DNA from: Dictyostelium discoideum
Lineage: Eukaryota
Length of the DNA: 64,000 bases
Assembly (NCBI GenBank): GCA_000004695.1
Contig: CM000151.3
Location: 4,928,001-4,992,000, forward strand
Reading direction: 5' to 3'
The number at the start of each line of letters is the position of its first letter. Positions within the stretch are counted from its first letter, which is position 1. Shown here one piece after another: positions 11,461 to 15,798 of the stretch. The translations under genes were made by a program, and so were the position numbers. Below the pieces are notes generated by a model. That model saw only the letters and a program-made list of their open reading frames with translations. It was not told the DNA's origin and searched no databases.

Positions 11461-11710
11461 ACTTTGAAAATTTAGGTTGCATTTGGTGGAATGACACCAC
11501 CAGCACCTCTAGCACCATTACCATAATCTGGGCTAATGGTTAATTTTCAGGTTTCACCATTTTCATTTTAGCAACACCTTCATCCCAACCTTTGATGATT
11601 TGACTAAATTTTAGAAAAAAAAAAAAAAAAAAATTAGAAAATTATGGGAAAAAAAAAAAAAAAAAGATTAAAGAATTTGCATACCAGCTCCAAGTTTAAA
11701 ATTACTAATT
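11461..11710 (-). pseudogene. Degenerate partial copy of the FKBP12 gene segment (exon 4 plus part of intron 3).
   Basis: 11461-11595 aligns with 7873-8015. The sequence gttgcatttggtgg...accaccagcacctctagcacca...tctgggctaatggttaattt is shared. The intron segment gaatttgcatacc...aagtttaaaatta at 11676-11705 matches 8094-8130. The copy carries indels and stop codons. Confidence 0.6.
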
Positions 11711-11728: not shown

Positions 11729-11762
<34 letters not shown>

Positions 11763-11913
11763 ATTATAATTATAATATCATAAATGGAAATTGATATTAT
11801 TTTTAAAAATCCATAATAAAATTAAAAAACATTCAAAATTGGTTTTTTTGAAATTTAAAAATAGGAAAAAAAAAATAAAAAAAATTAAAAAAAAAAAAAG
11901 TTTTAAATTTTTT

Positions 11914-11962
<49 letters not shown>

Positions 11963-11978
11963 CAATTGGAAAAAGATA

Positions 11979-12010
<32 letters not shown>

Positions 12011-12203
12011 ATTTTTTTATTTTTTAACGAAATAATTTATATGCGCGAAATTCGTTGATTAAAAAGAAATTATATTTAAAAATATTAAAAAAAAAAAAAA
12101 GAGTATTAATAATAGCACGCACATTCATTATTATTTATAAATTATAGTTCTTTTTTTTTTTTTAAAAAAAATATATAAAAAATAAAAATATAAAAATAAA
12201 AAA

Positions 12204-13715
12204 ATGGTATACATAACACCAAAGGGTAAAATAAATTTACCCAATTATAAAGGTGGTACAACCATTGATAAATCTATAATGTATCAATATGTAATCAGTC
12301 CTTCTTGTAATATTATAGTTGAATATTTTCCAAAAAATTTAGCGTAAAGTTTTTTTTATATTCTATTAAAAGAAAAATAAAAATAAAAATAAAAATACTA
12401 ATTCTCTTTTTAAAAAAAAATTAAAATAAAAATAAAAATAAAAATAAAAACCACACACACACTCTAAAAATAAAAATTTATAGACCAAATTTAGTATGTA
12501 TTAATTGATTTACCTTTATAATAAATAAATAAATAAACTAATATATATATATATATATATATTTTTTTTTTTTTTAAAAAATTTAGATTACAGCAATTGG
12601 ATTATTTTGTAATTTTTTAGGATTGTTTTCAGTATTTTATTTTATTGGATTTAATGAGAGTATTGGAGGTAATAAACCAACATTAGAGGATGATAGTTCA
12701 GTTAGATGGGTTTATTTATTTGCAGGAATGATGATATTCATTTATATGATGATGGACAATATCGATGGTAAACAAGCAAGAAGAACAAAAACATCATCCC
12801 CATTGGGTGAATTATTCGACCACGGATGCGACTCGTTATGCACTGGACTGCTTCCATTGATAGTCGGTATTTCGATGGGTATTCGTAGCTGGGAGATCCT
12901 AATTGCATTTATGGCAGCCACAATACCATTCTACTTAGCCCACTGGGAGGAATACTTCACCCACCATCTTGTATTGGGCGCATTGAATGGCCCAACCGAG
13001 GCAGAGTGTATGGCAATATTGTTCTGTTTCCTCACTGGTATATTTGGTCAATGGATTTGGTTCATAAAGATTGATTTCAGTGTACTCACATTCAACCATA
13101 TCCAATACACAGGTCAATTGAATGAAATGATCTTTTTCGCTATGGCAATAATCTCATTCGTTACAGCATTTCAAAATATTTTAACATCAACTAAAAAAGC
13201 AATAGATATGAAAATTAGTTTATTCACTGCTTATTCACAACCAATTCCATTCATTATCTTTTTTTGCTCTGAATTTATTTGGTTAAAATTATCACCTTCT
13301 TTATTTTTAACTTATCCAATAATTCATATATTAAGTTTAACTTTTATTTTCTCATATGTAGTTGTAAGTTCAAAAATTATTTACTTTTTTTAAATTTACT
13401 ATACAAATATTAACATAATTTTTAAATATATATATATAGTGTCGTTGTATTGTTCAAAGAATTTGTCAAGAAGATTTTAGATTATTTTATAAACCATTAA
13501 TATTTTTAATTGGTTGTGTTTTAAATACAGCAGCTAAAGTTTATTTGAATATTGAAATTTTGGATGAACAAATTTCAGTATTATTATTATTTGCTATTAG
13601 TTTAGGTTTCATGTTCCATTTTACATATAGTATCATTCAAGAAATGTGTTTAGTTTTAAAAATTAATGCATTTACAATTCCATCATCATCACCACCAATT
13701 AAAAAATTAAATTAA
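12204..13715 (+). CDS. Choline/ethanolamine phosphotransferase (CDP-alcohol phosphatidyltransferase family), ~400 aa. join(12204..12343,12484..12493,12587..13363,13440..13715). The second exon is a 10-nt micro-exon.
   Basis: The CDP-alcohol phosphotransferase motif [26 protein letters not shown] is in exon 3. The N-terminus ...[11 protein letters not shown]|ITAIGLF... is only reconstituted when the micro-exon ACCAAATTTA (acceptor tatag, donor GTATGT) is included. The C-terminal exon ([13 protein letters not shown]...) resembles the CEPT/CPT tail (MCRIIVAH...). Confidence 0.8.
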
Positions 13716-13789
13716 TTTTTAAAAAAATAAAAAATAAAGATTTAAAATATTTAATTAAAATATTATTTTTGTGTGTGTTTGTGTGTGTT

Positions 13790-15798
13790 TTAATTTTTAT
13801 TTATTTTTAAATGATTTGTTATTAAATTAATTGAATTTTCAATTTTTGATAATCTATTGGAATGATTTGTTAATATATTTTCAATTGAATTTAATTTATT
13901 TAAAATTAAATTTTGAATATTTAATAATGATGTTGATGTTGATGGTGATAATTCTAAATTTGAAGAATTTTCATTTTCATTATTTTTTAAATTTGATTTA
14001 ATTGGTTCAATAGATTCAGTTGATATAAATAATGAAATTTTCCAATTTGAAGTTGATCTAAATGATAATCCAATACCTTTTTCATTTAATTTTTCACCAC
14101 CTATTATATATAATTTATTATCTGATAAAATTGATAACCCTTTTGATTTATATTTTGAAAATTCATTATCATTATTATTATCAATTGATAGTAGTTTATT
14201 ATTATTATTTTCAATTATTATTGAATTTTCATTTTCATTTCCATTTTTTAAAATTTTAAATAATTGAATATATTTTGAAAATGTTGATGTAATACCAATT
14301 AAATCATTTTCATAATTTAATGTTAATATATTAGGTGTCAATATATTAATATTTAATTTTATTTTATCTAAATTTTTAATTTCAATTTTATTTTTATTTT
14401 CATCACTGTTAATATAAATTTTAAATAATAATAAATATGATCCTTTTTCTTTTATTGATTTTTTATTTATTGTTTCAATTGGTTCATTTGATGATGATGA
14501 TGATGATGATGATTCACTTTCAATACTTATTAAAGGTTTTGAAATTAATGTATTGGTTTTATTATTAATAGTTGATTGGTTAACCATAAATAATGATTCA
14601 ATTATAGAATTATTATTATTATTATTATTTGATTTAATAAATTGAACTTCTTTTTCTTCTTCTTCTTCTTCAACTTCCTCAATGGTATTTTCTTCAAATA
14701 ATTTTATTGATGGTTTTGAAATTGATGGTAATTTTAATATAGGTTCCATATATGTTGTTGCAGTTGTAGTTGTTTGAATTGAAGGATATGAAGTTATTAT
14801 AAAGTTTTCATTATCAATCCATTCTACTCTTAAAAAATCATTATTTATATCATCTATTTCTTCTTCTTCTTCTTCTCCTTCTTCTTTTTCATATATAAAT
14901 AATAAATTATTAAAATTAATTTCATTAAATGAATTCCATTTTAATAAAAATATTTTTTTATTTGTTATCCTTTAAATTGGTTTAAAAAAATATAAAATTA
15001 ATTTTAATATACAAATAAATAATAAAAATTAAAATTAATAATAATAATAAAAATAATAATAATAATGAAACTTACAATAGTAAAATTAAACCATTATTTG
15101 ACCATTTTAAATCAATTATTGGTGATGATGTTATTGAAAAAAATTGATTTTTTAATAAAGTTTCAATTGATGACATTTCATATTTTATATTATTATTATT
15201 TTCATCATTAATATTTTTAAAAATATAAATTTTATCATTTGTAATTAATGTGATTGTATTATTACATATATTATAATCATCAATTGTTTTATTTGTGAAT
15301 GAATAATTATTATTTTCATTTTCGTCAATTAATAAATTTTTTAATAATATCCATTCATTTGATTCTTTAATAAATTTAAATAAAAAAAATCTATTATTAT
15401 TAAATGCATAAATTAAATTACTATTTTTAATAATTTTAAAATTTATTATCCTTTTTTTTTTTTTAAAAGATTTAAGAAATTAAAAAAATTAATATTAATT
15501 ATTTAAAAAATTGGAAAAATAAAAAAAAAACACAATACTTGTATTCAAAAATAATTGATTTAATTTTCAATGGTGGTGAATCAAAAATTTGTAAAAAATT
15601 TAAACAGTAATAATCATTTTCTCCTTGGTGTTTTATTGGCCACACTAAATATGGATTAATCCTTTGTTTATCACTTGGATGATAAAAAGTGTTAAATGAA
15701 TTAGTTTTATTATTTATACTACCGCCACCACCACCACTTCCACTATTATTTAAAAGTGTACATTCATTATCTATAACATTTTTAATTTTAATTTTCAT
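13790..15798 (-). CDS. Hypothetical multi-exon gene with at least 3 introns. Exon 1 is about 15539..15798 (MKIKIKNVIDNECTLLNNSGSGGGGGS...EYK). The large 3' exon is about 13790..14970 and contains a LYIIGG Kelch-like motif, an E-rich stretch and an N-rich stretch.
   Basis: ORF track (13790..14749 and 15499..15798). The open frame continues upstream of the ORF's M to an acceptor near 14970. GTATTG and GTAAGT donors were found at 15538 and ~15090. Exact splice phases are not fully resolved. Confidence 0.4.

Follow-up and report, generated by a model that had tools for sequence, protein, structure and literature searches.

The gene at positions 12204-13715 of the DNA analysed here, a 64-kb stretch from Dictyostelium discoideum (the window), raises the question of how the 243 nt between its first coding exon and the exon that opens at 12587 are removed from the transcript. 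Coding micro-exons are internal exons of about 3-30 nt that are missed by gene predictors, and the first-pass annotation of the window had placed such an exon, of 10 nt, within this interval. We conclude that positions 12344-12586 very probably consist of two ordinary short introns (140 and 93 nt) and one constitutive 10-nt coding micro-exon, giving the main splice form. In the transcript of D. discoideum itself, we infer from sequence comparison that the micro-exon would be spliced in constitutively. Each of the two short introns would probably be recognised singly (intron definition), as is the general expectation for organisms with short introns.

Gene structure and the encoded enzyme

The window is AT-rich throughout, with a G+C content of 15-33%, and the features of the gene are collected in Table 1. 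Exon 1 starts with the ATG at 12204 and ends with CCA AAA AAT TTA GC at 12343, followed by the donor GTAAAG; the first-pass annotation had read this end (FPKNL-A, with GC before the junction) correctly base for base. Its coordinates and letters for the 10-nt exon between tatag and GTATGT were also right, the boundaries being TTATAG upstream and GTATGT downstream, and the start of exon 3 at 12587 with ITAIGLF was confirmed on the sequence, where ATTACAGCA (first codons ATT ACA GCA ATT GGA TTA TTT) directly follows ATTTAG. The last two bases of the intron 1 donor GTAAAG are unlike those of the GTAAGT and GTATGT donors of the gene's other introns and of the orthologues, and this mismatch counts against the micro-exon model.

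Table 1. Features of the phosphotransferase gene in the window
Feature	Length	Positions	Strand	Remarks
Exon 1	140 nt	12204..12343	+	M1-L46 and GC of the Ala47 codon; ends in phase 2
Cryptic donor-like GTAATC inside exon 1		12291..12296	+	Donor of the AX4 reference model
Intron 1, GTAAAG...TTATAG	140 nt	12344..12483	+	G+C 11%; (AAAAAT)n repeat and short (CA)n
Micro-exon ACCAAATTTA	10 nt	12484..12493	+	Third base of Ala47, then Pro48, Asn49, Leu50
Intron 2, GTATGT...ATTTAG	93 nt	12494..12586	+	G+C 8%; (TA)n and poly-T tracts
Exon 3	777 nt	12587..13363	+	Starts ITAIGLF; has DNIDGKQAR...GELFDHGCD
Intron 3, GTAAGT...TATAG	76 nt	13364..13439	+	Spliced product identical to KAM9945435.1
Exon 4		13440..13715	+	TAA stop at 13713-13715; covers the C-terminal helices in the alignments to solved CPT/CEPT structures

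With the 10 nt included, the four-exon product is a protein of 400 aa that reads FPKNLAPNLITAIG. The first-pass annotation had called the gene a choline/ethanolamine phosphotransferase and had suggested alignment with members of that family as a check. Pfam PF01066 (CDP-alcohol phosphatidyltransferase; gathering cut-off 22 bits) matches the product of the micro-exon model with 41.1 bits over residues 47-165 and profile positions 3-99. Residues 11-389 of the 400 align to solved yeast Cpt1 (8urt, E 4e-30), and near-full-length alignments to the structures 8urt, 8ul9, 8ero (Xenopus CHPT1) and 8gyw (human CEPT1) have E values from 4e-30 to 5e-25, the yeast Cpt1 chains being 388-393 residues long. 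The Pfam match and the alignments to the yeast, Xenopus and human enzymes bear out the family name.

Alignment with yeast Cpt1 also points to the eukaryote-type architecture, in which an N-terminal helix region would be followed by TM1-10. The signature D1xxD2G1xxAR...G2xxxD3xxxD4, as defined in PMC10182977, is intact in exon 3 as DNIDGKQAR...GELFDHGCD and aligns in 8urt, 8ero and 8gyw. The Glu and His of GELFDH, which were proposed to be catalytic in Xenopus CHPT1 (xlCHPT1; PMC10182977), are both present in the Dictyostelium protein. The gene is the predicted D. discoideum Kennedy-pathway choline/ethanolamine phosphotransferase. Its protein shares with yeast Cpt1/Ept1 and vertebrate CHPT1 and CEPT1 (class I, PF01066) the signature, the APNxxT segment, the N-terminal Tyr and the C-terminal helices, but differs from the solved CPT/CEPT enzymes in its low identity to them and in having its APN segment cut from both neighbouring exons by introns.

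Reading frame and uniqueness of the 10-nt exon

Joining exon 1 straight to exon 3 shifts the frame and leads to a stop after 12 codons. The 243 nt between them have an A+T content of 90% and offer no more than five AG and four GT dinucleotides. When the donor at 12344 and the acceptor at 12586 are fixed, exactly one internal exon bounded by AG and GT restores the frame without a stop, namely 12484-12493. A search of both strands of the 64-kb window for the pattern AG-N-CCN-AAY-(Leu/Ile/Val/Thr/Ser codon)-GT found it a single time, at these same positions; among 200,000 shuffled versions of the interval, 2 contained it (analytic expectation 1.3e-5). The exon is internal, shorter than the 30 nt that bounds the class of coding micro-exons, flanked by canonical AG and GT, and frame-preserving.

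The first-pass annotation had held that the 10-nt exon is the only way to keep the frame and to recover APN(L)IT. The part about the frame did not stand, since upstream cryptic GT donors within exon 1 offer many in-frame single-intron solutions, for example 12291 to 12586. The part about the conserved residues did: among the frame-keeping splices, the micro-exon solution is the only one that retains them.

The APN segment and the predicted substrate contact

In the alignment, FPKNLAPNLITAIG lies over FPLWMAPNLVTLLG of yeast Cpt1 and likewise over VPLWLAPNTITMVG and VPSWIAPNLITIIG of Xenopus CHPT1 and human CEPT1, respectively, as the family assignment had led the first-pass annotation to expect. 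The segment reads APNLIT here, APNLVT in yeast Cpt1, APNTIT in xlCHPT1 and APNLIT in human CEPT1. The cytidine ring is held by Asn64 in xlCHPT1 (PMC10182977), and in yeast Cpt1 Asn49 and Thr52 hold the cytosine 4-amino group (PMC11696302). Counted along the alignments, Dictyostelium N49 and T52 correspond to Asn49 and Thr52 of yeast Cpt1, and N49 to Asn64 of xlCHPT1. The codon of N49 (12488-12490) lies within the micro-exon, and the predicted cytosine-binding segment (A/P)PNxxT, here A47-P48-N49-L50-I51-T52, is complete solely when the micro-exon is included.

The pattern xPNx[ILVM][TS] is present in 103 of the 120 best homologues; those without it comprise N-terminal fragments, Coemansia (AANMVT), a single protein whose N-terminus is much extended, and mis-spliced dictyostelid models. 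The micro-exon would finish the Ala47 codon and add Pro48-Asn49-Leu50, and so supply the start of APNxxT at the N-terminal end of TM1. Asn49, together with Thr52 from exon 3, would form hydrogen bonds to the cytosine ring of the CDP-alcohol substrate, a putative enzymatic role that the correspondence with the solved enzymes suggests.

Conservation of the micro-exon and the single-intron reference model

We fetched and read the orthologous loci of D. firmibasis, D. purpureum, Cavenderia fasciculata, T. lacteum, P. violaceum and A. subglobosum. In three of these relatives the exon persists with both of its splice sites, while the introns around it have diverged (Table 2). Identity to D. discoideum is 0.38-0.74 in the introns, 0.75-0.98 in exons 1 and 3 and 0.7-1.0 in the micro-exon. 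For D. purpureum alone the identity is 0.52 in intron 1 and 0.86 in exon 1. Across codons 30-57 this species and D. discoideum show seven synonymous and two conservative non-synonymous differences, one of the synonymous changes being AAT to AAC in the Asn codon of the micro-exon. The reading frame of 400 aa is intact and, on this comparison, under purifying selection.

Table 2. The micro-exon and its surroundings in species that carry both flanking introns
Species	Exon 1	Intron 1	Sequence before	Micro-exon	Sequence after	Intron 2	Remark
D. discoideum (window)	140 nt	140 nt	TTATAG	ACCAAATTTA	GTATGT	93 nt	
D. firmibasis	140 nt	141 nt	AATAG	ACCAAATTTA	GTATGT	84 nt	
D. purpureum	140 nt	107 nt	AACAG	ACCAAACTTA	GTATGT	81 nt	
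Cavenderia fasciculata	140 nt	75 nt	AACAG	CCCTAATCTA	GTATGG	91 nt	HPNL

These comparisons bear on the AX4 reference entry (EAL69898.1 / XP_643721.1 / Q8T2Q6; P0122), a protein of 379 aa that equals the encoded protein except in the disputed segment, where it reads SIMYQY/ITAIG (the slash marks the splice junction). Its model has one 296-nt intron, from TAT/GTAATC at 12291 to the acceptor at 12586, with ACCAAATTTA intronic, and loses 21 residues, 30-50, including the APN motif. The lost residues are conserved across Dictyostelia, they align to the amphipathic helix and the APN of the solved enzymes, and one of them matches the cytosine-binding Asn. Positions 12291-12343 would be intronic, yet they differ from D. 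purpureum mostly synonymously, and the donor that the model uses is not conserved, the site being GTCATT in D. purpureum. A cDNA of T. lacteum, in which exon 1 continues to GC, also argues against this donor, and the Pfam score drops from 41.1 bits to 34.3 bits, with profile positions 23-99 covered. What speaks for the single intron is that it is in frame, that it is the deposited and long-standing entry of AX4, RefSeq and UniProt (XP_643721.1, Q8T2Q6), and that the JGI model of D. purpureum has the same shape. We regard it as extremely unlikely that the reference model is right, and the splice from 12291 to 12586 could occur as a minor isoform.

Exon 1 could alternatively be read as a 5' leader or upstream ORF, with the Met start in exon 3, or the gene as a frameshifted pseudogene with exon 1 joined straight to exon 3. 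The direct join of the two exons is indeed out of frame, and bacterial-style ORF calling gave a 256-aa ORF starting inside exon 3; against this, exon 1 is conserved as protein from C. fasciculata to D. discoideum. It also aligns to the N-terminus of yeast Cpt1, including the ribose-binding Tyr, which is Tyr16 in yeast (PMC11696302) and Tyr15 in Dictyostelium, and the intact 400-aa frame with its purifying selection argues against a leader or a pseudogene as well. Either form of this reading has next to no probability. On the grounds of conservation, alignment and the intact frame, we rejected the single-intron reference model, the internal start in exon 3 and the pseudogene alike.

Loss of one flanking intron in relatives

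The micro-exon model gains from species in which one of the two introns is missing. In T. lacteum, intron 1 sits at the GC/A position as in D. discoideum, and the 10 nt are fused to the downstream exon; a Logan RNA-seq contig from the same species (ERR3252990) joins ...TTTTTAGC directly to ACCCAATTTAATAACAGC, from which it follows that intron 1 is the only one there. In P. violaceum and A. subglobosum, exon 1 includes the 10 nt and only intron 2 is present, in phase 0 after Leu; a metatranscriptome cDNA from a relative of P. violaceum, 84% identical in nucleotides, runs across the intron 2 position without a break. Because relatives have lost one or the other flanking intron, the two intron positions are confirmed separately, and for the same reason the locus is a clean teaching example of a very short exon that is provable by comparative genomics alone.

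A CPT/EPT paralogue of D. cf. discoideum (P0030, 409 aa; L015:440-640) has a GC/A intron in the Ala codon of WLAPN and no intron after Leu. The model of a C. fasciculata paralogue (P0070) has, at WLA-KVNLINLLILFSFFTLYS-PNLITL, an unexpected insertion resembling the GC/A intron in translation. Intron 1 would be older than the paralogue duplication, and the two intron positions would go back at least as far as the common ancestor of the sampled Dictyostelia. What is left between the introns would be the micro-exon, and in three sampled lineages that lost one intron the 10 nt would have become part of an adjoining exon. The simplest history would place intron 1 before the paralogue split and intron 2 in the ancestor of the sampled Dictyostelia, with three single losses afterwards.

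The micro-exon might also be a regulated switch, whose skipping would lead to an early stop and mRNA decay and would tune the enzyme level in growth or development. The one point in its favour, itself speculative, is that any transcript without the exon would meet a stop 12 codons into exon 3 and be non-functional. Lineages in which the 10 nt are fused to exon 1 or exon 3 do without such a switch, however, and we consider it very unlikely. The same low probability attaches to an evolutionary version of it. There, the ancestral 10-nt exon would have dissolved in three lineages (by loss of intron 1 in P. violaceum and A. subglobosum and of intron 2 in T. lacteum) and would have been retained in group 4 and Cavenderia as a frameshift off-switch for phosphatidylcholine/phosphatidylethanolamine synthesis in development; we think of it as a long shot.

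The 10-nt exon resembles known coding micro-exons in its canonical AG and GT boundaries, its kept frame, the conserved residues it encodes and its absence from several automatic annotations. It differs from the regulated neuronal micro-exons of animals, whose lengths are multiples of three, in being constitutive and essential for the frame as far as can be read from the sequence, and in lying between very short, AT-rich introns.

Transcript searches

The transcript predicted by the micro-exon model reads TTTAGC-ACCAAATTTA-ATTACAGC. Its exact spliced junction, TTAGCACCAAAYTTAATTACAGC, had 0 matches in JGI metagenome/metatranscriptome contigs. The degenerate pattern PNLITA[IT]G gave 25 loci, among which there was no group-4 Dictyostelium transcript; of these loci, only the P. 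violaceum-like cDNA already known and two remote homologues matched the protein. A search with the N-terminal 105 residues for transcript-derived fragments found no match, the word index having given almost no candidates. Within the protein cluster, the single Logan member (P0129) retains intron 3; it is therefore genomic or unspliced and carries no information on splicing. These searches thus recovered no cDNA or junction read of D. discoideum, which counts against the micro-exon model. Indirect support comes from the T. lacteum cDNA for the junction across intron 1, from the P. violaceum-like cDNA for that across intron 2, and from the RNA-seq-guided D. firmibasis model. A literature search for Dictyostelium micro-exons returned nothing but a TopHat command-line option.

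Annotated gene models

The cluster around the protein at 90% identity has ten members. Eight of them are newer models, from three other D. discoideum assemblies, two of D. cf. discoideum, and D. citrinum, D. dimigraforme and D. firmibasis, and all eight read FPK[NS]LAPNLIT. One, KAM9945435.1 from the D. discoideum assembly GCA_054883475.1, is identical to the micro-exon model at 400 of 400 residues, so the correct structure is already public in GenBank. The protein shows no difference from that encoded in the window, whereas the DNA of the two loci is one T apart over the 1.5-kb gene: the sole difference lies in the poly-T after (TA)n of intron 2 (12549-12576), where the window is one T longer.

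The D. firmibasis model KAK5577280.1 contains APNLIT. Its genome was annotated by MAKER with genome-guided Trinity RNA-seq transcripts and the D. discoideum UniProt proteome UP000002195 (PMC11193728). Since UniProt Q8T2Q6 lacks the segment, the D. firmibasis segment most likely came from transcripts or ab initio prediction, and probably rests on one or the other. How the 2025 strain assemblies were annotated is not stated in the main text of PMC12745789.

Exon prediction was expected by the first-pass annotation to miss so short an exon, and the AX4 reference, D. purpureum and C. fasciculata models are indeed all without it. In D. purpureum DICPUDRAFT_87966 (P0002, 367 aa; L008:1501-1860) the micro-exon is skipped through a cryptic donor, giving MYQY/ITAIG, and in the C. 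fasciculata orthologue (P0007, 387 aa; L013:2204-2545) a cryptic donor gives FPKSFQY/ITATG. The C. fasciculata model also has an extra, doubtful first exon of four codons (MIIK...) about 700 nt upstream. In a EukProt model (P0008), FPKAFQ passes directly to WVHF.

The micro-exon is already in GenBank annotations of 2024-2025, and the present result is a gene-model correction and no discovery. Q8T2Q6 / XP_643721.1, DICPUDRAFT_87966 and the C. fasciculata entry contain the same kind of error and need correction. As the AX4 entry lacks 21 residues, including the substrate-binding Asn, structural, phylogenetic or knock-in work based on it would start from a defective sequence. The value of the analysis lies in correcting the reference entries and in an example of micro-exon evolution by loss of flanking introns; knowledge of the enzyme family and of splicing is unchanged, and the exon is an ordinary feature of a housekeeping lipid-synthesis gene.

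Surroundings of the gene and the residue aligned with Trp50 of xlCHPT1

Upstream of the gene, positions 11730-12010 hold very long poly-T/poly-A tracts of up to about 60 nt; such tracts are typical of Dictyostelium intergenic sequence. At 11470-11600 the G+C content is raised and the sequence resembles a coding exon of a neighbouring gene. On the minus strand, a long low-complexity open frame (13800-14800) starts about 90 nt past the stop codon, where annotations of the other D. discoideum assembly (L001) and of D. firmibasis (L014) place a neighbouring product of about 594-607 aa that lacks a Pfam match. Open frames on the strand opposite the interval are short and of low complexity, and were set aside as artefacts of the AT-rich sequence. 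Scanning 11800-13900 with Rfam returned nothing but a sub-threshold mir-84 match on the opposite strand of exon 4, which we judged to be chance (18.9 bits against a gathering score of 60).

In xlCHPT1, Trp50 is reported to contact the choline quaternary ammonium (PMC10182977). Pairwise alignment places Cys35 of the Dictyostelium protein (codon 12306-12308) at this position, a difference that might bear on the preference for choline or ethanolamine.
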